From the NCBI GenBank assembly GCA_008632985.1, contig QPGO01000191.1, positions 62,001 through 126,000 on the forward strand: 64,000 nucleotides of DNA, in the 5' to 3' direction. Every line of letters starts with the position of its first letter. The stretch's first letter is position 1. The DNA comes from Psammoneis japonica (lineage: Eukaryota). Under the pieces are notes generated by a model that had not been told where the DNA came from, did not search any database, and saw only the letters and a program-made list of their open reading frames with translations. This document shows positions 16,091 to 43,700 of this stretch, one piece after another. The position numbers and the translations under genes are program-made.

Positions 16091-16167
16091 TATTTTCTGG
16101 GGTAAACCTGGTATTTTCTGGGGTAAACCTGGCATTTTCTGGGGTAAACCTGGCATTTTCTGGGGTA
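16091..16167. repeat. 21-bp minisatellite, about 3.7 copies
   Basis: (t/c)attttctggggtaaacctgg repeated; copies differ by TA versus CA. Confidence 0.9.
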
Positions 16168-20518: not shown

Positions 20519-22276
20519 AACATCTCACAATTTCGCAGATCGCAGAACATTGGTGTCATCAAGGTGACTCAAACACGACGGTGCACGGTGACCTCATGCG
20601 CGATTCGCGTTCGGTTTCCTGCCGTCATTTTGAATGGCCTTCTTCATTCTTGCCTTCTTTTCAGCTTTTCCTCACAATCTCTCATTGAATCTGTTGTCAC
20701 TGACCCCATTGTTAGTAATGCCATCCTCGGGTTAGACCGAGGTTTTCCTCTTTGACTTCTTGATGTTCCTGCATCTGCCATCAAGCTTCCAATGCTTGGA
20801 AAGATTGCTCAACAGCGCCAGCCAGGTCTTGGAGTTTTTTTTTTCTGGCGGCGTCACACTGGGAAGTGGACCAGCAGTTTGCAAGGTGCCAGTGTAAATG
20901 AACAGAGCAGCATGCAGCACTTTTCACTCTGGGTGTGCAGCGATGAGTGGCCTTTTTGAAAACCGGTAAAGCGGGTCAAGGGGGAGAATTGGGTCATTCC
21001 AGCAGATTGGCAGACCCTCAGCCAAGGCTGGGCACACAAGAAGCAACCCACAATGAAAAAAGGCAGCTTTGAAGTTGACCCAAGATCACAGCTATGCTCC
21101 TTTCCATGAGAGCAGTGTGCTGCACAAGCAATTGTCTCAGAAAGGCCTGGATGTGGTGCAGACTCCATGGCTTCCCGCCCCACAACACAGCGTCATGGGC
21201 ACTCTCACAGTGTTGGGAGTCTGTGATGATGATGTTGCAGAGTCTGCAATGAATTGTCAAAACCACAACACTGCAAACGTCCATTGTGAAACCTGCAGCA
21301 TTGTCCGCGGTGCTCCTCCTGCTTGTGCACTGCCCACATCTCTCCTGATGTTGCCAAAACACATGGTCAATTGCTGTGCTGCATGTTGTTTGTTTGGACT
21401 TTCAAAACAACATCTGAGTTGGATCCAGATCTTCATGGACACTGCACAACATGCAAGGCATCCTCAAACACATGCAAACACACACCAAAAAGATCCAGAT
21501 CTGATCTGTGGGTGCAGCATCTTCAACTTTGTTGAGCAGTTTTGGGACACTGCACACAACTGTTGCTGGATTTTCTGCACGAACTTCTTCATGCATGACT
21601 TTGGATGCAGCATGGCACGTTTTCTGGAGGAATTGCTGGAAACAGGGTTTCCCAGTTGCATTGTTGGAGTTTTCACCTTTTTCCAGGTGAATTTGTGGGT
21701 CTTCCTTCTTGGACATTGCTGGGTTTCATTCCTGCATGCCAACCACTGTCTCACACATGTTTCTGGGTTTGAGGGCACCTCCAATCTTCTGGGGAGCAAC
21801 CCATTGCCAGAGCTCCAGGAATGAACTGGTGCCCTCCTCCACCAGCATTCCTGGACTGTGCTTCAGGCACAGCATTGTTCTCATCTGGGGCCTGTGGTGC
21901 AATGCCGCGTGCATCAACAGAGAGTCAAGTGGAGCGCAACAAAATGATCCAAGTCAGTGCATGTTGGTGGAACTGGCTTTCCATGTGGCACTCCACCACA
22001 CAGTTTCTTCTGATTCTGAATGCAGCAAACATTTGATCATCAAGCCCCATCCATGGTTTTCTCATCCTGTTGGGTGCGGGACAAGACTTGCAGGCAAAGG
22101 ATTCTTTGACATTCTGGCTGCAAGAATGGTGGTCAAATGCATTCTTTTTTTGAGTCGCCAGAAAAACAAAAGAGAAAAACTGTTCTGAGGATAACTCACC
22201 AAATGTTTTTATTGGCGTTTGACTGCATTGTCTCCTTGGCTCTGCTGAAAATGCAAAAAGCAGAGCTGTTGAGGAC

Positions 22277-22748
22277 AGTCGAAGCTCGCGTGTCCGCGCA
22301 AGCTCCGAGTGCCTTCCCAACGTGTCGACTGGATGTCCACTCCAGATCGATGCCTCAGGCAGAATGCAAGTAGATGGAATCTGCTTGCGAGTGGTGACGA
22401 GCATTTGGTCTTTCACAAAAGTGCCAGTGACCAAATCACAAGCTGCCTAGACTGAATCTGCTGAATGCACCCAAACAGAGGTTGATCCGCAGGTTTGCAC
22501 TGGAGACTGGTGCAAACTTCAGGGCCAACCACATTCACAACAATCATCCAAATGCTGCTGAACCAATCTGTGGTTGGTCCAACATCTGTGCGAAGCCTGT
22601 GATCTCCAAAGCACCGCCTGTGATCCCCAAAGCATTCGGCTTGAGAATCAAGTCGACGTGGCGCGAAAAGAATTTCAACAAGAATTCCGATTGATGGAAG
22701 CACAGACACAACAGAGAATCTGGGTTGGTGGACAGACGAACCACGACT
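22277..22748 (-). repeat. 3' LTR of element A
   Basis: Colinear with 28069-28540; termini AGTCG...CGACT. Confidence 0.93.
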
Positions 22749-22894
22749 CTCCCTCTCATTCACAGATTCCAGCAACCAACAAGAAAATCACAAACGAGAA
22801 AGCTCACACAATTGGTGCAAGTTCAGAGCAAAGCTCCCACATCTTGACCGAGCCACAACACATGACAAACAAAGGAAGCGATGCTTCCAAAGTG

Positions 22895-23695
22895 CTGCCA
22901 CCCTTGGACCTTCAACCGGTTGTTCTCGAAGAGCTCTCGAGTCAAAGGCTTGGTGAGACAATCGGTGAGTTGCTCGGCCGATTCCACCTTGATCGCATTG
23001 AACTCATCACAATGCAACCAGAACCAATGCCACTTGATGAGAAAATGCTTGGTGCGATTGGTGATGCGGTGGTTGGCAGCCAGGTGGTGGGCGCCTTGAT
23101 TGTCTTCGAACATGCGTGCACGAACCGAAGTCCTGAGATCTTGGGAGATGTCTGGGGTAAAGACGATCTCAAGGAGCAGGTTCTTCAAAGGTGGGAGAGT
23201 CCAAAGAGCACAGGAGGCGGCTTGACACTCGGCTTTGAGGGTGGAGCAGGAAACAGCTGACTGGAGCTGCGATTTCCACACCAAAGGACATCCACTGAGA
23301 GTTGTGATGCATCCGGTGCGAGACCTCACAGAATTTGGGTCAGAATCTGCTTCGCAGCAATGGAGACCAGCAAAATCAGCATTGACCCATAAATCAAGAT
23401 CCAAACAACCGGTTGGAGATGGCAGCATCCCCTGATCATGCGTCCTTTTCAAGCAGCGGACCAGAGTCTTGACGGCGGTTGCGCGCGACTGTTTTGGGTT
23501 GGAATTGAAGCGTGCAACCTGACTGACGGTGAGGGAAATGTCAGGACGGGTGTTGGTGGACAAGCACAGGAGCATTCCAACGATGGAGGGATGGCTCCAT
23601 TCCTCCTGCATGGGATCTCCGTCCACATCAGTGCCAAGGGCTTGGGACGCCGCAGGGAGCAAGTTCGGTTTGCTGTCAACCAAGCCGGTGGCCAA
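22895..23695 (-). pseudogene. Element A RT C-terminus and RNase H
   Basis: SIVGMLLCLSTNTRPDI, NADFAG, SRTGC, WKSQLQ, FEDNQGA, TKHF, DCLTK; ends GW then CAG (inferred former TAG). Confidence 0.9.
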
Positions 23696-26605
23696 CCGTC
23701 CCGTCACCTCTACTTTCTGTTGCTGGCGCTCTCAAGGCGGCGTTCACGAGTCCCAAGGAGACAAAGGAAGTGGTTGAAGAGCACACCTTCCTGGTCATTT
23801 GGGACTCAGGAGCAAGCACATCGGTCTCACCTTGCAAGGACGACTTCATCGGGCCTCTCAAGAAACCACCTGTCACTGTCCGGCTCCAAGGTGTCGCAAA
23901 GGGCCTCCATGTGGCAGGTGTTGGACACGTCGCTTGGTCTTTTGTTGATGTTGCTGGGGTGCCTCGGACCCTGAAGGTTCCGGCCTGCTGCGTCCCCAAG
24001 TCCAAGGCTCGTCTCTTGAGCACAACCAGTCTCTTGCAGATGTGCTTGGATGAGTCTGTCGAACTGCTGTCGGACCGTGCCATCCTCAGTGGATCCAAGA
24101 ATCGCGAACAAGGACACAGGCGAGGTGTTGAAGTGTTGATTGAACCTTCAACTAACCCACCAGTTGGATGGGCCTGCGCGAATCAAGCAAGTCAACAAAT
24201 TTGTGAGGAGTTTCATTTGACGTTGTCGACGATTGTGGAACACAATCACAATGTCTCACCTGCTGAAAAGGAGCCACTGCATTGGCACTTTCGTCTCGGG
24301 CATCTGAGCTTTCGAAAGGTGCAATTTTTGATGCGTGCGGGAGTTCTGTCCCACTCCGAGGGCACCCGTTGTTTGCATGAACGCGCTTGTTGCATCGATC
24401 GTCCGCCCCTTTGTGCCGCACGCCAATGTGGAAAACAAAAACGCCGTCCCAGCCCCGGAAAGACTTCTCGTGTCGTCAAGGATCGAGCTGGAGCCTTGAA
24501 GAAGGATCAACTGTTCCCCGGTCAACGAGTTTCGGTTGATCATTTTGTTTGTTCCACTCGTGGTCGTCTGAAACATGCTTTTGGAAAGGAGAGCATAAAA
24601 CATCAGTGTTTGGGCGGAGCAATCTTTGTGGACCATGCATCCGGTTGTGTCAACGTTCAACATCAAACTCACCTCAATGCCCATGAAACTTTGACGGCCA
24701 AGAACGCATTTGAGGCTCATTGTCGTGATTGTGGTGTCATTCCCCAAGAATGTCTGAGCGACAATGGAAAGGCATTCATGTCGGCTAATTTCAGGGTTCA
24801 CTTGGAATCTTTTGCTCAAGTTTCAAAGTGCGCCGGTGCAGGAGCTCACCATCACAATGGGGTTTGTGAACGAGCAATGCACGCCGCGATGTCGATCGCA
24901 AGAAGTGTGATGTTGCACGCGGCGATCCATTGGCCTGACGTTGCGGACGCTGCTCTTTGGCCTTTGGCTGTGGACCACGCTGTTGTGCTTCACAACGCGA
25001 TGCCAGACCCATCTGCGGGTCTGAGTCCACAGGATGTGTTCACCCAGATGCGCAACCCTCACTCTCGGTTCCAGGATTGTCATGTTTGGGGGTGCCCTGT
25101 TTGCGTTCTTGACAAAGCTCTCGCCGATGGAAACAATGGCAATCTTTCGTGCTGTGGAGTCATTGCGTGGAAATTGTGTGGGACAGCACCAAGACAAGTC
25201 TGTCTGTCTGTCCTCAGTGAATTTTAACTTTGCGAAAAATGGATTTGACTGTTTTCTGATCAGGTGCATTTTTCTTCAACACATTTGCAAAAACACACCT
25301 GACCCGACAACAGTCAAGTCTGTTTTTGCACAAATTGTGTGAACATGACAGTTTCAGTGCAAAAACGTGTGGATTCTACAGGCGTCCTTGATTGTTTTAT
25401 GCTCTCTATGTCACGGGTCATTTTCAAAAGATTCCTGTTGAAACTGCCAAAGTGGAAACCCCGCGCGAGTCGGCATGTCTGTGTGGGACTCAGCACCGAG
25501 CATGCCTCATCAGTCCCGCCAGTCTTGAGTCTTGAAACGGGAGCCATCACTCCACAATTCCATGTCGTTTTTGATGATTGGTTTGCGACGGTTCCTGCCG
25601 ATGCCAGCTCGTCACCTGCCATTGGGTCTCCGGAATGGACGTCTCTTTTCGGAGACAGTGTGTGTCAACATGCTGTGGATGATGAAGAGCAGGCTGATGT
25701 CGACATCCGTCAAGAACACCCAGAATGTGAGCGCCGATCCAAGGAAATCCGTGAAACCGTCACCCGCCGGTTGCCTCCCAAACCCTCACAGGTCCCTCCT
25801 CCGGCTGCTCAGGCACCAGCATCTTCTTCCGAGGCCCCCTCTCATCCTGTTGTGGAACCCCCGGTCCCTGAGGTGGAGTCTGTGCCTCCACTGGAGTCTC
25901 CCACTGAACCCGTGGCTTCAGACTCGCCTCAGAGGGAGAGAGCACCCGCTGCCAACTCAAACACCCCACCAAGTCCTCAGAGGGAGCCTCCCACCCCTCG
26001 AAGTCTTTCTTCGGATGTCTGTCAAGAGAGGGAGTCACCACCTGTGGCTCCACCCAGTGCACAATGCCCCTCTCCAACCCCAGTTCATCGCTCAACCCGG
26101 ACTCGCGCTGTGCCCCAGCGGTTTGGACACGATGGATCTCAGGGACATGGATGCTTGTCTCACTTCATTGATTTCCATCATGCACACAAGTTTGACCACG
26201 GTTGCAACACACCCATGACTGCTCCTGCCGTGTGCAAGGCGTCGGTGTGCAAAGTCAAGGATCCGGACACGCTGTCGTGGGATGAGGCCATGTGCTCTTC
26301 CGATCACGACAAGTGGTTGAAAGCGGCTGAGATCGAGATTGCAGCACTTGTCCATCAAGGAACGTGGGTCGAGGCACCCACATCCGATGCTCAAACCAAG
26401 TTCCTTCCCGGCACTTGGGCATTTCGTCGCAAGCGATCACCTTCAGGCGAGATCAAGAAGTGCAAGGCTCGCCACTGTTGTCACGGCGATCTGCAGGAAG
26501 GAAGTCTGTTTGACACTTGTGCACCGGTTGTAGCCTGGAGCACGGTTCGAGCATTTTTGGCATTGAGTCTTGTTCTTGGATGGCATGTGGCATCCGCCGA
26601 TTTCC
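23696..26605 (+). pseudogene. Element A protease, integrase and RT N-terminus, inverted relative to the rest of the element
   Basis: IWDSGAS, WHFRLGH, C..C, VSVD, FVDHASG, SDNG, NGVCER, WGCPVCVLD, PQFHVVFDDWF, DPDTLSWDEAM, GTWAFRRKR, APVVAWSTVR. Confidence 0.9.
25134..25440. mobile_element. 307-bp MITE inserted in the element A integrase
   Basis: Splits LDKALADG / KLPKWKPR; imperfect TIRs caatggcaatcttt and aaagattcctgttg; possible 2-bp AA TSD. Confidence 0.75.
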
Positions 26606-27800
26606 AGGTTCTTGGATGCAAGGCATCGTTTTGCGTCCATCTTAGACTTGTGCGCTGTCTCAACAAGTGCTTCGCTCAAATTCTCTTTCACAGTGCGAAG
26701 GGCGTGCTTGAACTGCTGACCGTTTTCGCCATCCCCTCCAGCTTCCAGGCAAGCGTTGACCAAGGCAAGCGTCAGCTTGTGGTCGCACTGACCCGCAACA
26801 TCTAACTCTTGGGCCGCAGTCTTGAACTTGGACAGGAGCTGGGAGAGATCCTGACCGGCGAACTGGGAGGGCTTGAGTTCCTCTAGCTGCTTTTCGAGCT
26901 GCTTGAAGCGTTCGATGGACGTGCTCTGAAGGATCACGACGAGAGCCATCCAGACTTTCGGAAAGCAATCCGACTCTTCCGTCTCCAGATCCAGCTGCAC
27001 GGCCAGGCTAGCCTCCAAGGAGTTCTTGAGAAACTCAGTGGCGTCCCTGTCATTGGATGAATCGCAGGAGTCATGCTTGGCGAGTTGAGGTGCGACAAGA
27101 CGGGTGACGCTCGATTTGGAATGCCGAGGATGTCCTTCAATGCAAGACGTCACGGAAGTTGAGTCCTCGGGGTCCTGCAGGCAAGTTGCCGCATCCAAAC
27201 CGCAGTCCTTGAGATGCTTCATCACGTTCTTCTCAAAGGTTGCAAGATCTCCCTTCTCATCAAACTTGGTCGAAAGTCCGGCAACGCAGCAGGCCTTGCT
27301 CTTCTGGGCAGAAGAAACATGGTGGGAGCGACACTGATTTGGTGACATTGGACTGGAGTTGGGAGTTTCCAATCCGGACCAGTCAGCCTTGGGTTTCCCA
27401 CCGGTCCAAGCAACTTTCTCAGTGGAACCAATGGAGATAATCCCCCCCCATCTCAGGAGCCTTGGGTTTGCAGACTTTCGTCTTCGGCATCGCCGCGGCT
27501 GCCATGGCAGCCATGGCCTGAACAGTGCGACGCTCGTCTTCCGTCATGCCAGAGCCTGCAGCGGGCTCGTCATCATCATCGTCCGAGTCGTCATCCGAAT
27601 CGTCCGGGCAAAGTTCCAAGGGCGGAACAGGCTCGTCGTCTGGGTCGTTAGGGTCCTGAGGTGGTGGATTATCCCCCGGTGGAGGTTGATCCTCAGGAGG
27701 CTGATCCTCGAACACTTCGGGGTCGTCAGCCATGTCCGACAGCGCGCTTGAAGCTGTCGAGTCGGACCAATCGTCTGGGACGTTCTCAATCAAAGAGTGC
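26606..27800 (-). pseudogene. Element A gag region (frameshifted, truncated by the inversion)
   Basis: Acidic/Pro-rich N-part, MGG...WTGGKP, HLKDCGLDA..CLQDP, LKPSQFAGQD; lies directly downstream of the 5' LTR. Confidence 0.75.
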
Positions 27801-28068
27801 GAGCTCGGAGAACTCTCTTGGGTCTCAGGAGGGCCATGGGGTGGAGCAGGGCCTGAGATGGTGCATGTGCAAAATCAACAATGAACCTTCTGGCGGAACC
27901 AGCCATTCAGCTGACGGAGTCAGTCGCAGTGCTTGACATCAAGAGCGCGGAGCGCAGTTGATGAGGAGTGCTGACGGTGTCAGAGCCATTGATGGGGTTG
28001 CTCTGGTTTGGGCGTCCCCAACCGGAAGCGTGGAACATGTTAAGTTGCCCCAATTGGGCGAACTGGCC

Positions 28069-28540
28069 AGTCGAAGCTCGCGTGTCCGCGCAAGCTCCGA
28101 GTGCCTTCCCAACGTGTCGACTGGATGTCCACTCCAGATCGACACCTCAGGCAGAATGCAAGTAGATGGAATCTACTTACGAGCAGCAACGAGCATTTGG
28201 TCTTTCACAAAAGTGCTGGTGACCAAATTACAAGCTGCCTAGACTGAATCTGCTGAATGCACCCAAACAGAGGTTGATCTGCAGGTTTGTGCTAGAGACT
28301 GGTGCAAACTTCAGGGTCAACCACGTTCACAACAATCATCCAAACACTGCTGAACCAATCTATGGTTGGTCCAACATCTGTGCAAAGCCCATGATCTCCA
28401 AAGCACCGCCTGTGATCCCCAAAGCATTCGGCTTGAGAATCAAGTCAACGTGGCGCGAAAAGAATTTCAACAAGAATTCCGACTGACAGAAGTGCAGACA
28501 CAACAGAGAATCTGGGTCGGTGGACAGACGAACCACGACT
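28069..28540 (-). repeat. 5' LTR of element A
   Basis: Colinear with 22277-22748. Confidence 0.93.
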
Positions 28541-30899
28541 GGGACACTTCTTGGAAAAGGACACATGGCAAAATCAAGCCAGCACTTTCATGATGTTCTC
28601 ACCTTGATGCCTGCTTCTTTTGGTTGAGTTGACAGTCATCTTAGCGTTTTTGGTGTTCCTTTCATCAACATTGTTTTCTTTGTCTGCTTCACCCTGACAT
28701 CCATTCACTGCCCCTGCCATGAAGGACTCTGCCACTTCTTTGTTCTTTGGCTCAAGTGTTCCTGCTGGCAGCAATGTCATTGGCATTGGGGTGCACTGTG
28801 CCATGCATTGCAATGTGATGGTGCAATCCCATTGTCAGCATTGTCCTGTTGTTGCTGCTTTTCACCCTGCAATGCAACCACATTTGCTGTTCTTTCATTG
28901 ACATGGCCAATTGGCTGGTCTCACAACACACCAGTCACTGCTGTGTCACCCAGTTCTTGGCTTGAGTGAGACAGCAGAAGAAGCTGCTGGAGCAGGATGA
29001 GACCCCCCGTCAGGCATTGCCAGGTTCATCTGCAACACAAGTGCTTCTCTCCCAGACCTGCAGTCCAACATTTGCTCCCATCTCTACCAAACTGCAGAAG
29101 CTGTTGGAGCAGGAGACCCGCCACTGTCCATGCCTCTGTCAGACCTAGAGATGATGGCCAGGGCCAGGCCCATGTCTGCAACATGCAGAAAAATGCTGCT
29201 CCCACCAGAACTGCAGTCCAAGACACCCCATTTTCTGTGAAAGGTGATGACAACCCATTTTGGTGCTACCCAGAGCTCTTGAAATGCTGCCACAAGGTGA
29301 TCTGCAGTGGGTTTGCACAAAGGGATGACAATTGGGTGCACGTTGCAGGTGAACACAGAATGTCCAGCTGGCTGGTGCAGACAGGTCAGTTGTGAAAAAG
29401 TGCGCAATTCAGCCTGACTGGCACCTCTCTGCACTGGTTGTGACATGCAAAAACACCACACATTGACAACAGCCCAGCTGGCTGGACATGGACAAAGGCA
29501 CAAGAAGCAGAGGGGGCATGCTCAGGCTCTGCTGCAGATGGGGGGATCCTCCACCAAGCCAACCCAGGGGCAACAACCAGAACATTGAGAGATGGCAGAT
29601 GCTGTTGCTGAATTCCCTCATTTGGCTGAGGAAGAGGAAGTGCCTGCAGATCCCTTGCAGCACTGAAGACCACCCACCAGATTTCTCAAACTGTGAAAGG
29701 GGTGCCAGCAAAACATTTTTCAGAAAGTGTGCCAGCAAACAAATCTTGGCATCAGGCACTGTGTTTCATGATGGCACAGGCTGCAAGAGTGGCCCTTCAG
29801 ACAAGGATGCCCACCTGCAGCTGCAGGCAGCTCAGCTTGCCACAAGCCCCCCAGATCAGAAGTGCAGCCAGCTGCCAAATGTTCTCAGACAGATTGCTGA
29901 AGAGAAGAGAGATCTTGCTTGGCAAGAAAGGCAGAGAGAAGTCAGGTGGGTTTGATGAGATTGAGAAGTTGAAGGCAAGGATCAAAAACTTGCATGCTGG
30001 AAAGAAACAAGGCAAGAGCAGAGCACAAGCAGGAGCAACAAAAGCCAGAAATTAGAGTCAGCAGGTCTTCTTCACTCTGACTCTGACATGTGATGCCCAA
30101 CCAAAAGGTGCAACTCTGATGGCTTTGGAGGAAACTGGGAAGGTTGTGGACATTGCCCCATCTTCACCACCACAGTTGCAGTGCCAACAGCTGTTCAGCA
30201 AATCAGATCACAGAGGACAGGCAACAGACAAGACTCCATCTGGAAAACATTCTCTCCACCAAAAAACAAAGACAAAGTTGATGCTGATTTTCTGGCTTCT
30301 GGAGGAGAATGCACTTTGCTTGTTTTCCAGTCAATGAACCTGGCTGACACAGGTGCTGATGCCAACTTGCATGTGTTTGACACAAAAAGAGTCAAAACGC
30401 TGCACAAAGATGCTGTGAAACATTTGGAGCTGATGGGAGCATTGATCTTTGTCGAGGGGTGACATCACATGTTCCAAGTGGCAAGTTGTTGGTGGAAATT
30501 GCCAGAAGAAGAAATCAAGCAAAGTTCACCTTGGGGTCATTTTGTGACCAAAGAACCAAGTGAAAGAATCCCAGTTGCAGCAAGATGCCTCAGAGCACAA
30601 GTGCAAAGATGATGACTCTCAAGGCACAGCTGTCTTCTGAGCCTTTTCTGAGGGCCAACCTGTGATTGTGATTGTCTCCCTCAAAGGAGTTCAGCATTTG
30701 TTGATGCAACATGTCCCATCTGCCACTGCAGAATGTTGCAAGTGTGTTCGAGTTCTGCCATTTTTTCAAAAGCCATGTGTGCTTCTTTGTTGGAAACAAA
30801 GCAAGACAGCTGCAGCATTTCAGCAACCTTTGTTGCCACTTCAGGTTTCTCCAGTCATTGGTGAGAGGGACTCTGTTGCATCTGCTGCTGGGCTGGGGT

Positions 30900-33250
30900 G
30901 TCACATGGCTGATGCAACACCACAGGATGACAAACCAAGGCAGCCACCTCTGTGTCAGTGAGCTGGCCAGAACCCTCAGCTGACAACTGCTTGGTTTGTC
31001 CATTGGCTGTTAAAGTCCACCCCTGGTGGGTCATGGCAGATTGGCTGGAGTCCTTGGCTGACAGCTGCATGGTCAGTTTGCAGCACTTGGGGTGTCCATC
31101 CATTTTCCAGATAAAAATTCAAGTCTGTCTGCTGCTGCTCTTGGGTGATGTTGGGCCAAAACACACCAGATGAACACCAAGGCAATCACAGTGAATGCTC
31201 TTAAAGTCTGTCACATGGCCAAAACAGCACCACAGGCCAAACCAAGATGACCATGGTCACAGTGAGCTGGACAGAACCCTCAGCTGACAACTGCTTGGTT
31301 TCTTGTTGCATTTGGGGTGTCATCTGTGGTCCATGTGGAAAATGCAAGTTTCTGTCTGCTGCCAGACTGGTGTGATGTTGGACCAAAACAGTGCAAGATG
31401 AGCCAAGCCAGTCACAACAATGCCATTGAAGCCCACCCCTGGGTCATTGCAAATTGGCTGGAGTCCTTGGCTGACAGCTGCATGGTCAGTTTGCAGCACT
31501 TGGGGTGTCCATCCATTGTCCAGATGAAAAATTCAAGTCTGTCTGCTGCTGCTCTTGGGTGATGTTGGGCCAAAACAACACCAGATGAACACTGAGGCAA
31601 CCACAGTGAATGCTTTGAAAGTCTGTCACATGGCCAAAACAGCACCACAGGCCAAACCAAGATGACCATCATGAATGCTCTTAAAGCCCACCTGGTTTCT
31701 TTGTTGTTGCACTCGGGGTGTCTGTCCATGGCCCATGTGGAAAATGCAAGTCTCTGTCTGCTGCCAGACTGGTGTGATGTTGGGCTAAAACAACACAAGA
31801 CAAGACAAGCCAGCCACAACAATGCCATCAAAGTCCACTCCTGGGCCATGGCAAATTGGCTGGAGTCCTTGGCTGACAGCTGCATGGTCAGTTTGCAGCA
31901 CTTGGGTTGTCCATCCATTGTTCAGACAAAAAAAATCAAGTCTGTCTGCTGCTGTTTTTGGGTGATGTTGGGGCAAAGTAACTCCAGAGGGATGAACCAA
32001 GGCGGCCGCAATGAAAGCTCTCTCATCCGCCCCTGGGTCACAGGCAGCAAGTTGGTCAGAACTCTCAGCTGACAACAGTTTGACTTCTTTGTTGCACTTG
32101 GGGTGTCTGTTGTTCAGATGGAAAAAGCAAGCCTGTCTCTGCTGCCAGACTGGGGTGAAGCTGGGCCAAAACAACACAAGATGAAACAAGCCAACCACCA
32201 GCCACTCTTTAAAGTCCACCTGCAGGTCACTGTGAGTTGGCTGGAGTCTTCTGCTGACAACCTGGTGCATTGTCCAGGCAGAAAAATTGAGTCTGTTTGA
32301 TGCCACCCTTCTTGTGTGACCTTGATCCAAAACAATGCCAGATGGCATGAGCCTTGCTGACCACAACAAATGCTCTTAAAGTTGAGTGAAAAAGCTGGAA
32401 CCCTTGGCTGACAACTGCGTGGCCAGTTTGGTGCACTTGGGGCATCCATCCATTGCCCGGATGGAAAAATCAAGTCTGACTGCTGATTGCCTTTGGCAAT
32501 GTTGGGCCAAAATGACACCAGATGACCCAAGGCAACCACAATGAATGCTCTCAAAGTTGGCCCCAGGAGCACAATGAGTTGGCTGGAACCCTCAGCTGAC
32601 AACTGTTTGGTTTCTTTGTTGCACTTGGGGTGTCCATCCATTGTCAAGGTGGAAAATTCAAGCACATCTCTGCTTCCAGCCTGGAGCAATGTTGTGCCAA
32701 AACAACTCCAGATGGGCCAAGACAGCCACAACAAATGCTCTCAAAGTCTGCCCCTGGATCACAATGAGTTGAGTGGAGCCCTCTGCTGACAACTGTTTGG
32801 TTTGTTTGTCATGCTTGAGGAATCTGTCCATTGTCCCAACAGAAAAATCATGCCAGCTGTCTCCTGCTGGCTGCCATCATTGGGTGATTTTGACCCCCCA
32901 AGCAACACCAGATGAACCTTGCCAATGACAACAAATGCTCTTAAAGTCCAGCCCAGGCACACAGCAAGAAGGCCAGAACCCTTGGCTGACAACTGCATGG
33001 CCAGTTGGTTCTTGCACTTGGGGTGTCCATCCATTGTCCAGATGGAAAAATCAAGTCAGTCTGCTGATGGCCTTGGGTGTTGTCGGACCAAAACAACACC
33101 AGGTGAACCAAGCCAACTGCAATGAATGCTCTTGAAGTCCACCCCTTGGTCACTGGGAGTTGACCAGAACCCTCAGCTGACAACTGTTTGGTTGTTTGGT
33201 TGCACACAGGGTGTCAATCAATTTGCCACCAGATGGAAATTTCCAGCCTG
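30900..33250 (-). repeat. Degenerate tandem array with about 190-bp period, about 12 units, possibly once coding
   Basis: ccct(c/t)(a/g)gctgaca(a/g)ctg recurs near 30971, 31050, 31276, 31462, 31865, 32061, 32250, 32400, 32588, 32780, 32978 and 33168; minus-strand peptide repeat WTMDGHPKCNKETKQLSAEGS. Confidence 0.85.
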
Positions 33251-34911
33251 TCTGATGTTGCTGTTGGCATGTTGCTGGGAAACAAGGATGGAGATGGAGG
33301 TGGTGCAACACCAGATTTGCCAGTTGGAGATTCGCGTGGAGCAGCAGATGGAGCACCAGAAGTTTTGTCGCTGGGTGAAACACCTGGAGAGCTTCAGCAC
33401 TTGGTGCACCTCCAGAAACAGACAGCAGTGCAGCTCTGCTGAGGGAGCCAACAAAGGCACAAGTCCTGCATTTGATTGGCTGGGCTCATCAGATGGAGAG
33501 CTGGAGGGTGCAGCAGATGACATTGGTGTTGGCACATCACTGGGAACCAATGATGGAGATGAAGGCAGTGCAGTGCCAGATTTGCCAATTGGAGGTTAAC
33601 GTGGAGCAGCAGATGGAGTGCCAGAAGTTTTGTCACTGGGTGTTCACCCAGAGCTTCACTTGGCACACCTCCAGAAAAAGATGGTGCAGCTGCTGAGGGA
33701 GCCAACAAAGGCACAAGTTCTGCATTTGACTGGCTGGGCTCATCAGATGAAGAACCAGAGGGTGCAGCAGATGATGATGGTGTTGGCACATCACTGGGAA
33801 CCAAGGATGGAGATGAAAGCAGTGCAAGAACACCAGGTTTGCTGATTGGTGATTGACGTGGAACAGCAGATGGTGTGCCAGAAGAGTCATCACTGGGTGT
33901 TTTGCTTGGAGCTTGCCTGGCGCACCTCCAGAAGGAGATGATGTGGGTGCTCAGAGAGCCAACGAAGGCACAAGTCCTGCACTCAATTGGCTGGACTTGT
34001 CAGATGGAGAACTGGAGGGCGCAACAGATGATGATGGAGTCGGCACATCACTGGGAACCATGGATGGAGACAAAGATGGCATGACAATGGATTTGACAGT
34101 TGGAGATGTGGAAACTGGGGACTTGAGAAGGTTTGTCAGTGGGGGCTTTGCTGGCCTGTTCCAGCTCCAGGTGCTCCGCGCGGGTTCGATTCCCATCATT
34201 TGGAAATTTGTGCATTTGGCGCAATTGACTTTTTCCAAATCCGTTTTTTGCCAAATCGAAGGGTAAGTGCGAGTAAATCTGGATGGAGGGCCACGTCATA
34301 ATTGGTGATTGGTTAAGACACATGGATCGAGTGGTGCTGCAGCGACACGCTCACAATCTGGTCAGGTTTGGGTTCGCATTGACAGTGTTGCTGCTTTCCA
34401 TTTAGACTTGAGGTGTCGTGCTTGTTCTTTCGTTGCATCGAGATTTATTCGCTTTGTCAGAGCCAAGACGAAAAAGACAGAGCGAAATGGTTTTGAATGC
34501 AATTCGTCATGGACGATTGTTTGTTGTGTTGTTTGCATGGAACGTGCAGCTGTAGAAACGGTGCTGAGCTGTGCGCGATGCGTCAGAATTCGGATTGATG
34601 CGCACGATGATGCGTCTCGTGTCGCTTGTTGTGACATCCACAAAAACAGCTTGCAATGGTGATGCTCGCAAAGACAGTCACTGTCCTCACATGTGCAATG
34701 GGTGTGAAGGGACTGCGGCATTGGGCGACATGCCCGAGCGTGTGCTCGACAATGTTGGTTGACATGAATGACACAGGACTGATCACCCTGATGTCGGGTG
34801 GCTGTGTAAACCTGTTGTCACAACACAGAGAAAGTGCAGCCATCATGACCATGCAGACTCACAGCTGTGTGTTCCTGGTGCGGGACCTTTGCACCCTTTC
34901 TCTGTCACAGG

Positions 34912-36456
34912 ATGGCAGCAGCGGCAGCACCAGCAGCAGCACTTGCGGCGTTGGCCGCGGCAGCTGACGTTGACGCAGTTTTGCAAGTTTGTGGTGTTGC
35001 TGACCAGAACGCAAGGGCGAGGTTGGTCTTCCATGAAGGGTCCACGACTTTGGAAAACATCGCAGTGATGGAGAGTGATCACGATGTGGAAGACATGGTG
35101 CAGAGGGCGTCTCGTCGCACGGTGGCCGACGGATGTGTGACTCTTGGGACTGTTCAGATCAAGAACTTGCAGGCGCTAGTGTGGTGGTGCCAGGATTTGC
35201 TCAAACAGAATCAGCCATTGGTTGTGGCAGACTTTAATGTGGCAGCTGTGGCTGCGGCCCGGAATGGCAGGCGTGTCGAAAAGGAGCGCACAGATTCGGA
35301 CGCGTCGGCAAGCGGTCTCGTAAAGTTCAAGCCCGATGACTTCGATGTGTGCGAAGATGCTTTCTTGAATCTCTTGGCACAGAAATTTGGCGTGTTGAAA
35401 GAACCCCTTCGCTGTGTTGCAAGGACAATGCCAGCTCCGGCTGCATTCACGGATGCTCAACAACAGCGTGTGTGCGAGATGCCATTGAATGGCGCCGCAC
35501 ATGACGAGGACAACCGCAGCGTTTGCCGTGTGTTGAAGGAATGCTTGGTCGACACGGCAGGATGGGCATGGATCGAACCATTTGACGCAACAGAAGATGG
35601 ACGTGGAGCATTCAACGCATGGGTTGACCATTGCAATGGACAGGGCGAGTTGAGCAAGCACATCCATCTGGCTGCGGCAACTGTTGAAACCTTGTTTTAT
35701 AAAAAGGAAGGATCGCTCCCATTCGAAAAGTTCAATGAGAAACTTGCCAGTGCTTTTGCTGCTTTGAACAAATCACCGGACGACCGCAAATCTGAACGAC
35801 AGAAAGTTGACATTCTTCTAAAAGGGATCCGAACGGATGACACTCGTCTCATTGCAGCAACGGCTGTCATTGGCAGTCAGCACCCTCGTGACTTCGCGGG
35901 GGCATGTGCTCATTTCTCATCCGAAGTCTCTCGTTTGCATGCAGGTGCTCAGTTGGAAGCCTGGCGTTGCTCGAAGCGCAAGATTTCTGAAATGAGCCGT
36001 GGTGGCGGCGGTGGCCGCGGTTTTTATCGAGGTCGCGGTCACGGAGGAAGATTTGGACGTGGGGGTGGACGCGGACGTGGTGGTGGCCGTCAAGGCAGAG
36101 GTGGCGACCACACTACGATGATCAATGGAGTCGATGTATCCGACCCTGCAAGGAGCTTTAGCGCTCAAGAATGGGAAAAGTTGCAGCACAATGGAGGCAT
36201 GAGCTGCGTGTTCCAAGCTCGCGAACGAATGGGTCATGGACGCGGTGGTGGCCGTGGGTCTCCCGCAGGTCAACAAGAACGCGATGGGGGCGGCAGGCAT
36301 GCAGCTGAAGCCCAAGTCTGTCAAGATGGCCAAGGCCAAACCCAACAACAGGATCAGGAGCAAAGGAGTGGCGGGCGTGGTCGCGGTGCTGACCGGGATC
36401 GCGGTGGATGCAATGGACGCACCTTCGGTCGGGGAGCCCACAATGGTTCCACCTGA
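34912..36456 (+). pseudogene. Element B gag
   Basis: Long ORF with DGRGAF..W..HCNG, FEKF..KL and an RGG-rich C-terminus; only 2 Tyr. Confidence 0.85.
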
Positions 36457-39400
36457 CTCCTTGGGGTGGCAACAGCTGCTGGAGCATTGGCGCATTTGGT
36501 GCACTTGTCGTTTTTGCTTGTGTTGCTCTTCTTGCTGTTGACCAAACCCCACCCAACATCTCATTTCAAAGGAAAGGTGACAAAGAGGCACATTGCCATG
36601 ACATCAAAACGTGTGATCCGATCGACGAGTTCTGCACAGATGACAAATTTGACGACACCTGGGTTTGTCGCTCGAAATGAATGTGACACTCACGCGGACA
36701 CTTGTTGCGCTGGGGCGAACTGGAAGCTCATGGAGATGACAAATGAAGTGTGCGAGGTGCATCCATTTCTGGACTCTTGCGAGCTGATCAAACAGATTCC
36801 TGTGGCACGTTGTTGCACCGCATGGACAGATCCGGAAACGACTCGTGAACATTTGCTGGTTGGTGATCAAATGCTCTGGTTTGGGACCGACATGGAACAC
36901 TCACTTTTGAATCCTAACCAACTCCGTGCGCACAACACACCCGCACACGACAACCCTTGCGACACCCGAAACGGATTTGGCATTGAAGCTGACGAAGCTT
37001 TCATCCCTTTCAATGCCACGGGGACAATTGTGTCTTTCAAGTCTCGTGTTCCGACGGATTGGGAAGCACAGAACTTGCCGGTTACACTGTTGACAGGTGA
37101 CGCATGGGATCCAGCACAGACAGACATGGGCTCACCGGAGTGCACTAGAGAGCAGGCGGAGATGCGCACTGTTCGATCATCAACCTCTGGCATGCGACAA
37201 GAACAGGTCTCGGAATTAAGGAGCGAGAAGGCAAGGTCCCAAGCAGCACGCTGGGGCGAGGTCGAAATGCAACTGTCGTCTGTGTCTCCTGTCTGTCAAC
37301 TTCAATCGTTTTGCGACAGGCTTGTCAGCTCAGTGAACATGGCTTGTACATGTCGCGACAACGTGGACAAGAGGCAGAGGGCAGTCAAAGATTTACACAG
37401 CAAGGATCGGCACTCGAAGGTTGATGCTGAAGAGCTGGCCCGAAAATGGAGCATCGGTTTGGAAATGGCAAAAGACACTCTCAATGTAACAACTCAGCGC
37501 GGTGTGCGAACGGCGACCCAGCCGATGTCACGAAGAGTGAGGGTGGATCATCTTGACTTGCATTGGAAGCGTCTGAAAGGAACATGGTTTGTGGACACTT
37601 TGACATCCAAGGTGAAGTCTTTGCTCGGCAACACGTGTGCCAATGTTTGCACTCAGGGCAAATTCGTGAAGGTTGTGCCAATGACCGCCAGGTCGGAGGC
37701 AGGTTTGTCTCTTGTTGAATTCACAGACGACGTGGGTGTGCCAGAATGTCTTATGTCGGACGGGGCAGGAGAGTTCACTGGAAGGAGCACCGAATTTGTG
37801 AGACATGCACGATGCATGAGAGCACAATTGAGAACATCAGAGCAGGGTCGGAAGAACCAGAACCAGGCAGCGGAGCGTGAAATTGGTTTCTTGGCCAAAT
37901 GTTGGTGGCTGCGGATGATGAAGAAGAAGGTGCCAAAGCGATCATGGGATTTTGGTCTTGTTTGCGAGTCGAAATTAGTGTCGCACATGGCAAGAGGCAG
38001 GGATGAGAGGACTGGATGTGAGGAGGTCACTGGGCAGACACCAGAGACAGGCGAGCATTTGGATTTTGGTTTCTGCAATGTGGTGTGGTGGTGGGACAGG
38101 CCCAACAAGCCGAGTGCAACTGACGATCCTCGAAGGCTTGGACGGTGGCTTGGTGTCTCACACAAAGTTGGCTCGGATGTGTGCCATTGGATCACCACGG
38201 AAAGCGGGAAGATTGTCTCCAAAACATCGGCCGAGCACGTGACACAGGCTGACAATGTGCAACCGGACATTCGTGTTGAGGTCGACAACTTTGATGAGCA
38301 GCTGGAGAAGCAATTGGATGACACTGGCTTTGTCTTAAAAGGCGATGAAGCTGTGCCCGCATTCATGTTGGACGATCTTGCAATTGACGGCAACCTCGGT
38401 GTGGAACATGAGGGCGGCATCATGCCAGAGGACAAGGAACATGGCAACATGCCATCACCCGACGAGCGACCAGACGACGACGACAAGCAGGCAATCGATC
38501 AACACCTGGGAATGGAACTCATGTTTGACATCGGAACCAACAGTGAGCGACGTGGTGTTGTAACGAAACGTGCAAGAGGACAGGATGGGCGTCCAATTGG
38601 GACTCGGCATCAAAACCCATTGTTTGACACTCGCGAGTGCAAAGTGGAATGTGCCGACGGAACCACAGACAAGCACACAGCCAATGTCATTGCCGAGAAC
38701 ATGTTTGCTCAGGTCGACAGCGAGGGCAACCAGCACTCTATCTCACACGAGATGCAGGACCACGAGAGGAGTGACGATGCGGTGTCGATTGCTGACGGCA
38801 CCGTACAAACCGCTGATGGGAAGGAGAAGAAGAAGATCACAACAAAAGGATGGAAGTTGTTGGTCGGATGGAAGGATGGTGGCTCATCTTGGGTCAAACT
38901 TAAAGATCTAAAGGACTCTGACCCCATTGAAGTTGCTGAGCATGCTGTTGCGAACAGGTTGACGGAGGAACCTGCTTTTGCTTGGTGGGTCACACATGTC
39001 CTGCATGAACGGAATCGCATCATGTCCAAGGTCAAGAAGAAGTGCTGGCGCACGACTCACAAGTTTGGGATCTGATCACCCAAGTCCACGGAGGACGCTT
39101 TGCGGATTGATCAGGAAACGGGGACAGATCATTGGGCTCGTGCAATCAATGAGGAGATGGCAAAGGTGAAGGTGGCATGGTGCGAGCACGAAGCTGAAAC
39201 CCCTCAAGTCGTCCGGGAAGGCAAGGGCACAACTTTGCATGGTCATCAGGAGATCAGGTGCCACATGGCATTCGACATTAAAATGGATTTCACCAGAAAG
39301 GCAAGGTTTGTAGCTGGCGGACACACGACAGAGGCCCCGGCATCGATCACTTGCTCTGGCGTGGTTTCCAGAGACAGCGTGCGACTTGGATTCTTGTTGG

Positions 39401-40788
39401 CAGCCTTGAATGGCATCGATGTTGCGGCGATTGATCTGGAGAATGCTTGTCTCAATGCACCGTGCGCAGAAAAGACATGGTTTGAAGGCAGAAAGGAATG
39501 CGGCGAGTGCAAAGGAAAGGTGCTTGTTGTCACTTGGGCATTGCATGGCTTGAAGAGCTCGGGACACTCTTGGAGGTCTGCACTGTCATCGGTCTTACGT
39601 GACTTGGGCTTCGAATCGACGAGAGCAGACCCAGATGTCTGCTTGCGTGCGGCGACTCGTGAGGATGGGCACGAGCATTGTGAAATGCTTTTGGTTTGTG
39701 TCGATGATGTGCCAATCATTTCCCATCAAGGGAAGTCTGTTGTTGCTGCAACAGGTGAACACCACACCGTGAAGCCCGGCAGCGAAGGAGAACCAGAAGT
39801 TTGTCTTGGAGCTAACGTTGAGAAGGTTCAGACTCAGGATGGGCGCACAATCTGGGCGAGTTCACCGAGGTCACATGTTGGATCGGCGATTGAGACTGTG
39901 GAAGGCCCATTGGATGAAGACGGCAATGGAGAGGTTCTGAAGAACAGTGCAAAGGATCCACTGCCCCCGAAGTGCAAACCGGAACTGGACGTGACGGACG
40001 AGTTAGGCCCCGACTTGGTGGACAGGCGTTTACAGCTGACAGGGATTTGTCGTTGGGCGATCGAGTTGGGTCGTATCAACATCTTGCATGAGGTTTCAAT
40101 CCTGTCTCAACATCAAGCTAATCCAAGGAAAGGACATCTTGAGGCATTGCACCATGTGTTTGCGCATGTGAAGAAACACCAGAACGTCGGACGCATCGGA
40201 TTTGATCCAAAGGAACCGGTGATTGATGAATCTATTTTCAATTCGAACGCAGACTGGACCGAGTTTTACGGGGACGTCGAGGAGGAACTGCCGCCACGGG
40301 CACCGAAGCCTCGTGGTAATCCGGCAAACATCCGTGCATTTGTTGACGCTAACCATGCAGGGAATGTTGTCACTCGCAGGTCGCATGGCGGGATTCTGAC
40401 ATTCGTCAACAATGCGCCAGTGGTGTGGTTCAGCAAGCGGCAGAACACGGTGGAATCGGCAACGTTTGGAAGTGAATTGGTTGCAATGCGGATTTGTAAG
40501 GAATTGATTGTTGCTTTGCATTGCAAGCTTTGTGTGTTTGGGGTTCCCCTTGAAGGACCGGCAAGTGTCTTTTGTGACAATCGCGGTGTTGCAAAGAATG
40601 CAAGTGCACCCGAGTCGGTTTTGCACAAGAAGCACAATGCCATCAACTGCCATGTTGCACGAGAAGTGGTCGCAGCGGGAATTATTCGTGTTGGCAAGGA
40701 GGACACGGAAACGAACTTGGCCGATCTGCTTGCGAAGGTGGTCACAGGAGAGCGGCGATGGAAGCTTTGCTCGTGCATTTTTTGGCAA
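36457..40788 (+). pseudogene. Element B pol (same frame as gag; premature TGA at 39073-39075)
   Basis: ECDTHADTCCAG, HSLLNPNQLR, SDGAGE, AEREI, GRWLGVSH, FDIKMDFTRKARFVAGGH, ALHGLKSSG, LVCVDD, FVDANHAG, SATFGSE, FCDN, NLADLL; ends IFW then CAA (inferred former TAA). Confidence 0.93.
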
Positions 40789-43700
40789 TGTCCCGACACC
40801 AAGGCCAGGCACCTGTGGCTCGCACCCACACATCGTGGCCTCCCAAGCCAGCACATCTGGTGGTTTAATTTGGGTTCTTGTGGTTTGCCTCTCTGTGAGA
40901 GGATGTCACATGTTCAGACGAATCGGCATTGTCATTGCCGTTTCGCGGGGACCGAGTAAATCTGGATGGAGGGCCACGTTGCAATTGGTGATTGGTTGAG
41001 ACACATGGATCGAGTGGTGCTGCAGCGACACGCTCACAATCTAATCAGGTTTAGGCTCGCATTGACAGTGTCACTGCTTTCCATTTAGACTCAAGGCATC
41101 GTGCTTGTTCTTTCGTTGCATCGAGATTCATTCGAGTGTGCACTTTACATGCATTTTCGGGTGTACACTCACCTTTCTATTTTCGAAACGATCAAAATTG
41201 AATGAGTCAATTGTGCTAAACTGCACAGAAAATTGGCCTCTCGCGTGATGAAAAGCAGAGCACCTGGAGCTGGAACAGGCCTGCTTGGAGCTTCACTCAG
41301 GACAGTGCCTGAAACAGATGATGGAGCCACTGATGGAGATGAAGAAGGCACAAGTCCTGCAAGAGCAGAGCAACATGCTCTGATCAGTCCTGTTGGAGAC
41401 GTGGAGGGTGTTGAAGAAAGCACACCATGCACCACGCACATCTGCCACAGCAGCGGCAAAGCATGGACAGAATCCTGGTCATGAGAAGGGCACCACCACA
41501 ATCTGCAAAAAGCAAAAGCTCAGGACATGGCTTTCTTTGGCACTTGGGGGGCAGGTGCATCAACAACCACAAACAATTCCCTCACTGCAGAAAGCATGTT
41601 GGCACTCTGAAGACACAGAGGAGAGAACACAATGGCGCTGGCCAGTGCACAAAGTGAGAACAGAGCACGATCTGCCTCAAAACATTCACCCATCACCCAC
41701 AAAGAAGATGACAAAGACAAGTTTTCTGCTCTGTTGTTGAAGGCTGTGGGGCATTGGCAACACCCTCATTGCCACATCGCCGCCCCCACACAACAACTCA
41801 CACTTGTCAGGTCAACGTCGTGCAAAGAGGAAATGCTCAGATGTGTTGATGGCCAAAGAAGTCAAAACAGCTTTCACAACCAACACTTTGTCTTTCTCAC
41901 ATTTGCGTCCACCCAAACCCAGCAAGGCAGAGAAAGAATGAGGGCTGCAGCTCTGGAGATCATGTGCAGGTGCAATTGATGTGACCACATTAACGTCATT
42001 GGCTGATGTGAAGGCGGGGGCTTGCAGACACAACCCCTCAAAACTCATTGCAGCAGGTTGGGGTTGCAAAAGCAGCAAAAGCACCACACTCCAACCACCT
42101 CTGCAACAAAGCACAATGATGCTCTTTTGTTCAAGAGCAGCAACAGAGCCTTGCAGCCAAAAAACACACACACATGGCTCACCCCCCACCCACCAGCATT
42201 GTTTTTGTTTGTTTGTCATGTTGACTCCCTGGCATCAGCAGCTGTTGTGTCAATCTTGTGCCAGCCTTTCTGAGCACTCCGCAGCTGTGTTTTCCACACC
42301 TCATCCTTGGAGCAATTGCTCTCATTCTGTGACTTTTTGGCACTGGTTGGGAGTTTCTCATCATCTGCAGGGGGCATCAGCCTCTTCAAAAAATGATGCT
42401 CAGTTGGGACATTCATCATCAGCCACATGCATGCACCAGCACTCAGCATGGCATTGTCATGTTTGATTTTGGCACTGGCAAAAACTTCCAAAAATTGCAA
42501 TTTTGGTTGTCACAGAGGCTCTGCATGTGCACGGCTGGGGCACGCAACACATGTCTTTTCACACTGTGTTTGAGCATCAGCACTCAACATTCAAACAAAT
42601 GCTCACATCCACCCATGGAGCATCTTCAATCTCCTGGCCAAACCAATGGTGTGTCCTGCCTGGGTTTGCTCTGAGCCCATGATTGAAGGGATGTGTGGTG
42701 TGGGAACATGGCCTGGGGTGCAGGGAGCATGCAGTGACTGCACATGTTGTCAGCGTTGGGCTGGCGCTGACACCCATGCTCTTGTGTCAGGCCTCTCCAC
42801 TGAAGAGCACAGCAGCCACATGCTGCTGGTTGCAGGCCCTGCCATCAGCTGCTGCTGCTGGCCACTCTGCCCTCTGCCACAGCCACTCTCTGGTTGCAAA
42901 AAGGGCCTTTTGCTCAGATCAGCAGAAGCAGCCCACCTGGGTGCACAGGTCATGGCTGGGTTTGGGCTGCCAGATGCCTGCTGTTTTGTCATGAACACAG
43001 CAGCCACATGCTGGTCACAGGCCCTGCCATCACCTGCTGCCAGCTCCTTTGACACAGTTGCTCTCTCTGGTGGTCACAGAGAGAGTGTTTTTTGCTCAGA
43101 TCAGCACAAGCAGCCTGCCCGGATGTGCAGGCCCTGGCTGGGTTTGCGCCACTGGACTCTTGCTGTTTCATCATGATGGTTGTGCCATTTCTCTTGGTGG
43201 TTGGCTGCACAGATGCAAATCTCCTGACTCATCATGGAGCACTGTTCTGAGTTTGGCAGAGGCTGTGCTGGCACTTGGAAGAACAACAAAGAGGGGCCAA
43301 AATGATGCAGGATCAACAGGGATGTTGCCTGAATCAGGCCAGCTGGAAGTCACATTGGTGGTGCTAAAAATCAAAAGAGCTGGACTTTGTTGTGGGTGTG
43401 GAGGAGATTTTTTGCACTCTGCTGTCAGCAGCCCAGTGGAGCACACTTGTCTTTCTCTGCCCTTGGCAGTGAAACAGCAAGTGAGTGCTCATGCAGTTTC
43501 ACTCTGTGATCAACATTGGAAGGACTCACCAAGCTTGCTTTTCTCTCTCTACAAAACTGCAAAAAGCACATCATTGACAAGTTCACATTGAGATTGTCAG
43601 CACCAATGACAACCCAGCAGCCATGCATGGCTTTGCACTTGGCTTGTGATGTCCACTGAGCAAACTGCTGGTGTCTTCTTCTGCTGTGCTGACCTCTCCT

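Follow-up and report, generated by a model that had tools for sequence, protein, structure and literature searches.

The window examined here is a 64,000-nucleotide stretch of the Psammoneis japonica genome (positions 62,001–126,000 of contig QPGO01000191.1, C188 of the assembly, forward strand), in which a block of nested repeats is flanked by ordinary genes. Coordinates below are those of the window unless a contig is named. The segment at issue, 28546–33250, forms the interior of a DNA element, here called the host, that is old, purged and non-autonomous. The segment is nearly devoid of two dinucleotides: it contains 14 TA against about 298–299 expected (observed-to-expected ratio, o/e, 0.05) and 15 CG against 289 (0.05). 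The lowest counts among 1000 base shuffles of the segment were 253 TA and 247 CG. TG and CA together account for 22.9% of its dinucleotide steps. The ordinary genes at 4600–20500, with Pfam matches to chaperonin, shikimate pathway, NUDIX and AAA families, served as an unpurged control (TA o/e 0.54, CG 1.05), and four gene blocks of 3.5–16 kb give ratios of 0.51–0.54 for TA and 1.05–1.09 for CG.

The host family is ~8.3 kb long with CACTG-type ends (CACTGCACGCG...CGCGTGCAGTG), and three copies show 2-bp duplications; this superfamily label, like the 3-bp and 8-bp duplication types below, is descriptive only. The left part of the host starts at its CACTG-type end (21548–22277), resumes at 28547–28803 past a retrotransposon, and has relatives on contigs C334, C8 and C290. 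The interior contains decayed tandem units of 190–400 bp at 31.0–33.2 kb and is followed by a purged array of 257-bp tandem units (33251–34152; TA 1, CG 9). The right part and an adjoining old purged block occupy 41282–43830, with TA o/e 0.02 and CG 0.25 at 41282–42030 and 0.03 and 0.08 at 42038–43830; within this interval, the stretch at 43.1–43.85 kb copies a sequence with intact relatives and is itself purged. For a protein of the host family we found no Pfam match and no homolog among 275 candidates, and no transposase was identified; the 14 frames from the host or from the element at 62 kb, of 45 frames scanned, also had no Pfam match.

Three insertions are poor in TA and have largely retained CG, in agreement with what an earlier, sequence-only reading of the window had reported for them. 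Copia A (22278–28541; GAG-pre-integrase match) is a rearranged long terminal repeat (LTR) retrotransposon inside the host, with TA o/e 0.02–0.11 and CG 0.68–0.78 in its internal parts. Its segment 23400–23696 (region 23400–23697) lies ~1.7 kb away on the opposite strand in sibling copies, and a piece from near 25133 (region ~25135–25430) matches many unrelated contigs; Copia A thus carries an inversion and a further insertion. Copia B (34269–41134, + strand; RVT_2 match; TA 0.13, CG 0.84), also an LTR retrotransposon, is held by a small inverted-repeat element inserted in the host (34153–41281, arms at 34153–34268 and 41135–41281), and the alignment of other Copia B copies ends at ~41134. The third is a 2.2-kb terminal-inverted-repeat (TIR) DNA element with 43-nt inverted ends and a 3-bp target duplication (52856–55060; TA 0.12 and CG 0.86 over 52855–55060). 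Finally, 61916–64000 belongs to a very young DNA element of 2.63 kb flanked by an 8-bp target duplication, hereafter the 62-kb element. The element ends ~550 bp past the window, and its 5′ part, which the window contains, lacks both dinucleotides (TA 0.02, CG 0.06 at 62000–63800). The statement that older host sequence lacks both TA and CG holds for composition everywhere it was applied, 62–63.8 kb included, but the label "older" fails for that last interval, which belongs to a young insertion.

Contig C220 is the allelic haplotype of the window, collinear with it at 93–98%, and shares 28546–33250 at 93–94%. In this allele, clean empty sites mark the positions of Copia A (5-bp overlap GGACA), of the inverted-repeat element bearing Copia B (TGCT duplication), of the TIR element and of the 62-kb element. 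A contig of sequencing run X1 likewise joins 52852 to 55061; it is possibly related to the source of the assembly and was not taken as independent. We rejected the idea that the empty site of the TIR element is an excision footprint, as its target duplications are 3 bp long and differ in sequence between copies. The host block of the allele is purged to the same degree (TA o/e 0.05, CG 0.11 over 9.2 kb) although it holds neither Copia, so the host predates the Copias and these did not cause its purge. This supports the proposal, drawn from nesting, that the sequence at 28.5–34.1 and 41.3–43.8 kb is older than the Copias nested in it. The target site of Copia A, GGACA, stands at 22273–22277, at 28542–28546 and in the empty allele, and the intact relative on C334 has TA there, indicating that the host lost that TA before Copia A inserted.

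The window contains two smaller purged patches, at 3300–4600 (TA 0.19, CG 0.64) and at 47660–48600 (TA 0.07, CG 0.18), the latter adjoining a gap of 280 N. A CG-rich 145-bp tandem array at 10046–10824 is unpurged (CG o/e up to 1.49, TA 0.34–0.53), so local repetition by itself is insufficient for full erasure. A purged block in the allele (C220 28845–30189), absent from the window at 42030–42038, is a partial copy of a neighbouring gene (window ~20.2–20.5 kb) that has kept 0/5 TA and 4/20 CG. Contigs of run X2 over 57218–61399 skip short intron-like intervals; that run, taken as DNA, may be RNA-derived. There were no look-alike stretches in other genomes compared.

Rates of TA and CG loss at ancestral sites

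Searching the assembly (91 Mb, 597 contigs), we aligned sibling copies to each window copy and classed columns as ancestral TA or CG by the dinucleotide states across copies. The comparison covers 39 copies of three families: 15 of Copia B, 16 of the TIR element and 8 of Copia A. The Copia B set was taken from 30 loci fetched, out of 42 matches listed; one near-duplicate, four loci of one tandem array, three more divergent loci and seven of a distant subfamily were set aside, seven of these 15 being reported as extras. The TIR set was likewise drawn from 30 loci fetched. A CG site was called only at ≥40% retention, so CG loss is slightly understated, and two TIR columns are probably miscalled.

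Across these copies, ancestral TA has been converted to TG or CA ~8–20 times faster than CG has been lost, as the sequence-only reading had anticipated in claiming that TpA loss outruns CpG loss. The window copies retain 3/45 TA and 72/89 CG sites in Copia A, 26/165 TA and 190/230 CG in Copia B (other differences 0.4–0.6%), and 18/94 TA and 100/105 CG in the TIR element. Each of the Copia B copies, which are near-equidistant at 91–94% identity, kept 7–25% of the 165 TA and 71–90% of the 230 CG sites with 0.2–1.2% change elsewhere; the eight Copia A copies kept 7–18% of TA and 67–81% of CG. In the TIR family retention falls from 96% to 18% for TA and from 100% to 87% for CG. Because its young copies still hold most of their TA, the ancestral state can be seen there directly, with no need for inference.

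Loss of TA depends on flanking bases and is fastest at RTAY (R, purine; Y, pyrimidine) and slowest at YTAR. Pooled values of −ln(fraction kept) for RTAY, mixed, YTAR and CG sites are 3.47, 1.95, 0.82 and 0.202 in Copia B (0.5% at other sites), 4.16, 1.79, 1.31 and 0.245 in Copia A (1.0%), and 0.73, 0.49, 0.25 and 0.039 in the TIR element (0.25%). Relative to background, the Copia B rates are roughly 670, 375, 160 and 39 times higher, respectively; these are relative figures, near saturation, and not rates per generation. The TA that remains in old DNA is mostly in slow contexts (TTAA 9 and CTAA 4 of 26; ATAT, ATAC and GTAC none). Over the 39 copies, the fraction of CG kept drops with background divergence (rho −0.76) and tracks the fraction of YTAR kept (rho 0.90), both correlations being inflated by pooling across families.

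The TIR copies fall into an early group of eight (671/746 TA and 804/815 CG kept; ratio of TA to CG loss rates, kTA/kCG, 7.8; background divergence 0.12%), a mid group of three (131/281 and 302/314; 19.6; 0.14%) and a late group of five (103/464 and 464/509; 16.3; 0.52%). CG loss is already running in the least-mutated copies, with no detectable lag, so the two losses are concurrent processes with different rates rather than the two successive stages originally proposed. In Copia B, CG has been lost at 10–29% of sites per copy, in both directions, and in genes CG o/e is ~1.

The TA process acts on DNA after insertion, as seen from the LTR pairs of single elements, which differ from each other at TA sites. 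Between its two LTRs, Copia A shows nine TG/CA swaps, five TA/derived and five CG/derived sites (against 19 CG kept) and differences at 3/244 other sites; Copia B shows four TG/CA swaps and five TA/derived sites, against 3/87 other sites. Both directions are equally used, the ratio of TG to CA at TA sites being 989:1042 in Copia B, 289:295 in the TIR element and 169:143 in Copia A. Adjacent sites changed in the same direction about as often as expected (1027 pairs versus 1012 expected, and 265 versus 288), and this adjacent-pair test gave no strand-coordinated bursts or runs; neighbouring sites behave independently. TA is destroyed and not created, C>T at CpA being found at 5/6743 sites.

The consequences for coding sequence are severe. 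Compared with 40 homologous proteins, the Copia B enzyme has 1 of 14 conserved tyrosines left (eight replaced by Cys and five by His); most other conserved residues are kept at 81–100%, with Ile at 50% and Met at 60%. The reverse transcriptase is thus predicted to be dead through loss of its tyrosines. A diatom is the sole organism given by name among the 120 relatives listed for this reverse transcriptase.

Element ends appear to lose TA later than interiors, in the TIR element and also in the 3′ LTR of Copia B copies. In the first 200 bp of the TIR element (52856–53050), a fraction of 0.16 of TA was lost (4 sites) versus ~0.45 inside. TA and CG gradients in the 1.5-kb flanks of 14 TIR copies were uninformative, many of these flanks being repeats themselves.

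Candidate mechanisms and possible shared targeting

The spectrum, the order of the rates, the timing after insertion, the independence of sites, the loss or retention of both dinucleotides together within a segment and the inheritance described in this work are probably best explained by two simultaneous mutational processes acting on silenced DNA of this genome. One would be a TpA-specific transition that turns TA into TG or CA (A>G or T>C) after insertion, site by site and on either strand; the other would be ordinary CpG decay, from CG to TG or CA. A newly silenced segment would first become TA-free while still rich in CG and later lose both, with TG/CA as the common endpoint. Non-autonomous elements would pass purged interiors on to new copies, and some element ends would escape both processes. 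Most likely, a single silencing state exposes DNA to slow deamination of 5-methylcytosine (5mC) and to a fast, distributive TpA mutator.

Several comparisons bear on the suggestion, made in the sequence-only reading, that methylation and the TA mutator share targets, and they are in line with it: from segment to segment, TA and CG are either both lost or both spared. Between the host relatives on C290 and C334, 8/97 TA and 4/74 CG sites are discordant in the left part, and 57/81 TA and 31/126 CG in the right part. In the 3′ part of the 62-kb family, losses amount to 29/32 TA and 6/22 CG in one copy and to 11/31 TA with all CG kept in another; most siblings have hardly lost any. In four unique blocks, the window and its allele are discordant at 61/633 TA, 82/1166 CG and 295/9552 other sites, both dinucleotides being near background. 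Such joint loss or sparing fits shared targeting, and we lean towards the view that one silencing signal may guide both processes.

The loss of CG is likely to reflect deamination of 5mC made by a DNMT5-type enzyme. In Phaeodactylum, CG methylation of transposons has been described as dependent on DNMT5a (Hoguin et al., PMC9998398). In the present genome, a locus on contig C76 has a weak methylase match, an SNF2 domain and an ACSG motif, an architecture that we take to be that of DNMT5. The CG signature and this DNMT5-like gene together suggest a link with methylation. Purging of TA (o/e 0.07–0.11) has also affected several gene copies for cytosine methyltransferases, some of them with stops (loci L146, L147, L148, L152 on C301 and C297, and L159 on C28); these are repeated or mobile DNMT copies.

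For the chemistry at TA, we tentatively prefer enzymatic deamination of adenine by an enzyme of the ADAT2/TadA type to a mutagenic base mark and to error-prone repair. TadA-like and ADAT2-like frames are present in the genome, although their presence does not discriminate among the chemistries. A mutagenic mark at the palindromic TpA, either an oxidised T or a methylated A that is later deaminated, would form a TpA counterpart of methylated CpG and is a possible but less likely alternative. The palindromic target, the equal strands and the steady loss of single sites without runs are more like a standing mark than a processive enzyme. However, the on/off difference among copies of similar age fits an inducible editor equally well, and a profile search of the genome gave no Tet_JBP match, a weak argument given that the control was also silent.

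Alternatively, TA loss could be a by-product of error-prone repair synthesis of the polymerase eta type, with its WA motif, at methylated or mismatched heterochromatin. This would explain the shared targets without a second targeting system, and both the co-location of TA loss with CG loss and a mild general excess of T>C over C>T elsewhere (121/20,900 versus 42/18,272) are in its favour. The WA motif of polymerase eta predicts raised AA>AG. In Copia B, however, T>C at other sites is as frequent at TpT (47/6870) as at TpC (47/7278), and purged DNA, whose GC content is near 50%, has an AA/TT o/e of 1.1–1.3. Moreover, TA loss does not depend on the distance to CG and is far commoner than CG loss. 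We therefore regard repair synthesis as an unlikely source.

A number of observations weigh against the two-process explanation as a whole. The genome sequence is unable to tell an attack on A from one on T, and ADAT2/TadA-type genes are general tRNA editors. The copies used are the best-scoring matches to the window copies and not a random sample, and Copia A by itself (8 copies) gives no significant correlation with background. The TA rate is unsteady relative to background, with 10% lost at 0.12% divergence in the early TIR group and 53% at 0.14% in the mid group, which hints at a copy-specific onset of TA loss in that family, the underlying counts (16 and 7) being small. The ratio of the two losses also varies by family: at similar TA loss, the TIR window copy has lost 5/105 CG and that of Copia B 40/230. 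Within the TIR element, TA loss is not correlated with local CG density (76 sites, p 0.19 and 0.50). Finally, unique DNA shows one-sided TA loss against the allele at kb 15 (10 versus 1) and kb 44 (8 versus 2), so targeting is not strictly repeat-limited.

These two patches, and a third at kb 48 (6 to 2), are opposite in sign to a bias in unique DNA within ~3 kb of the haplotype-specific TIR element (49900–52854 and 55061–58100), where cases of TA lacking in the window outnumber the reverse 14 to 1 relative to C220 (p 0.001, for an interval picked after looking). It is possible that TA loss in the TIR element leaks onto neighbouring genes.

Insertion age and inherited composition

The sequence-only reading had proposed that the two depletions, TA first and CG later, form a two-clock ranking of repeat age. 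As a means of ranking insertions in two successive stages, bulk composition now appears very doubtful. The expected order does hold for Copia A, Copia B and the TIR element relative to their host, and within families the fraction of CG kept falls with background divergence; distant Copia A relatives, at 14–21% other differences, retain only 4–19% of CG sites. In contrast, the 62-kb element inserted after the Copias, but TA o/e is 0.05 and CG 0.10 in its 5′ 2.1 kb. Its very recent insertion is indicated by the adjacent 58000–61915, which is near-identical between haplotypes (very few differences over 4 kb), and no copy exists at the allele. The 39 other matches listed include ten full-length ones at 99–100% on other contigs, and the closest sibling shows 0/1100 other differences (19 of the 39 aligned). 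Among the youngest insertions in the window, the element looks the oldest, and its family already refutes the ranking as a general rule. Its 3′ 550 bp has 32 TA (o/e 0.62) and 21 CG (1.01). The element also occurs in head-to-tail tandem arrays with a 2.6-kb period, at locus L191 on C2 and as matches on C23 and C15.

The host middle provides a second case, as it is purged in every relative found, recent copies included. Relatives over 29236–30943 on other contigs are 71–77% identical and all purged, and among 31 matches from 15 candidates we found no intact, TA- and CG-rich version of 29.2–33.2 kb. Among recent copies of this family the purged middle matches letter by letter, with 504–511 shared derived steps and 1–4 swaps, so these copies have inherited the purged state. 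Between the window and C334 the swaps number 32 over about 1.9 kb, far fewer than the ~95 estimated under independent decay from a normal ancestor, suggesting that much of the purge of the host middle is older than the split of these two copies. The CG o/e of 0.05 in the host is close to the steady state of 0.07 estimated from back-mutation. Both clocks are saturated there and give only a lower bound on age. The onset of CG loss alongside TA loss likewise counts against the ranking.

The ancestors of the 62-kb family were thus already CpG-poor, the condition that the sequence-only reading had itself named as refuting it, and the host middle was likewise purged already in its transposing masters. 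Other parts of the host had a CG- and TA-rich ancestor. The left 1.7 kb of the host family, intact in C334, C8 and C290, presents one homologous sequence in all three states. Relative to C334, C290 kept 89/96 TA and 70/70 CG, C34 kept 4/93 TA and 52/69 CG, C347 kept 2/74 TA and 8/55 CG, and the window copy kept 0/22 TA and 4/26 CG. Similarly, 43.1–43.85 kb kept 1/20 TA and 1/24 CG relative to its intact relative on C30; as a control, the intact sequences on C30 and C87, at a similar distance, share 11/18 TA and 18/19 CG.

Because the interior of the 62-kb element and the host middle inherited their purged state, composition reflects how much exposure a segment has accumulated over its lineage, and not when the element inserted. 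Dating by TA and CG is valid only if sibling copies or the LTRs of a pair are compared at ancestral sites. This inheritance might seem to favour elements that were TA-poor from the start, or that were edited as RNA by an ADAR-like enzyme during retrotransposition, without a mutator of DNA, but that account is virtually excluded, being already refuted for the three families measured by young TIR copies that retain 85–96% of their TA, by TG/CA swaps between the LTRs of single insertions, by equal directions on the Copia sense strand, by the involvement of DNA elements and gene copies, and by the loss of 13 of 14 conserved tyrosines.

Relation to known systems

A closely similar process has been described in the chlorarachniophyte Bigelowiella natans, in which integrated DNA of NCLDV (nucleocytoplasmic large DNA viruses) and of virophages is hypermutated at TpA (Mettrop et al., bioRxiv 10.64898/2026.01.13.699255). 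According to the available text of that preprint, the TA to TG/CA transitions are local, reach hundreds to a thousand times baseline in foreign or silent DNA, and are not active everywhere at once; ADAT2 is proposed as the cause, unproven there. As far as that text goes, the two systems share transitions concentrated at TpA, in both directions on a given strand and confined to foreign or silent DNA, with local exceptions in our case. They differ in that P. japonica belongs to another supergroup, that here LTR transposons, DNA transposons and decayed copies of genes are the targets, and that our evidence is read from comparisons of copies, whereas theirs comes from mutation-accumulation lines. 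In the part of the preprint available, the words "CpG" and "diatom" occur 0 times and no CpG coupling, flanking preference or rate ratio is seen, although its supplements may hold context data. A literature search, mostly without subscription papers, gave no report of a TpA process in diatoms.

CpG decay proceeds by deamination of 5-methylcytosine. The CG to TG/CA changes seen here, on both strands, limited to repeats and slow, resemble such decay on DNMT5-methylated diatom transposons (PMC9998398). That process, however, accounts only for the slower clock, the TA process being 8–20-fold faster.

Fungal repeat-induced point mutation (RIP) is a dinucleotide-specific hypermutation that kills repeats and makes TpA from CpA. 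The TA process is likewise dinucleotide-specific and kills repeats, but it runs in the opposite direction, as the rarity of C>T at CpA indicates, lacks strand-coordinated clusters and leaves GC near 50%. Unlike ADAR editing of retroelement RNA, it shows no strand bias and affects DNA elements and gene copies equally. In LTR–LTR and CpG-based dating, the substitutions that a copy has accumulated serve as a clock. In the present case the three TA context classes, combined with CG, resolve very recent events, on ancestral sites only. New in this work are the rate ratio and context ladder from 39 copies, the absence of a lag and of strand runs, the joint sparing by segment, and the view of composition as an exposure record, with a clear counterexample to its use as a measure of age.

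Taken together, a more speculative picture can be drawn, which we hold to be possible rather than likely. Diatoms would run a natural DNA adenine editor, tied to the DNMT5 silencing signal, that strips TA, and nearly every Tyr codon with it, within about 0.3–0.5% neutral divergence. Its action would spill over to nearby genes on the carrier haplotype and spare only element ends, so that the surviving non-autonomous transposons would consist of purged interiors with shielded ends. This would amount to an inverse-RIP defence shared with chlorarachniophytes, leaving a multi-speed record of silencing.

If the interpretation of two concurrent processes is correct, TpA hypermutation, of which one report exists from a rhizarian alga, would also act on the transposons of a stramenopile, and the joint loss and sparing of TA and CpG would point to silencing chromatin as the guide. 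For those who date insertions in this genome, ordinary LTR or divergence dating would overstate ages many times, because TA and CG sites account for most differences between copies that are 92–94% identical, and elements whose purged interiors were inherited are wrongly dated by their bulk composition. For the retrotransposons themselves, the process would mean that their enzymes are killed almost immediately, with the loss of 13 of 14 conserved tyrosines at a background divergence of ~0.5%.

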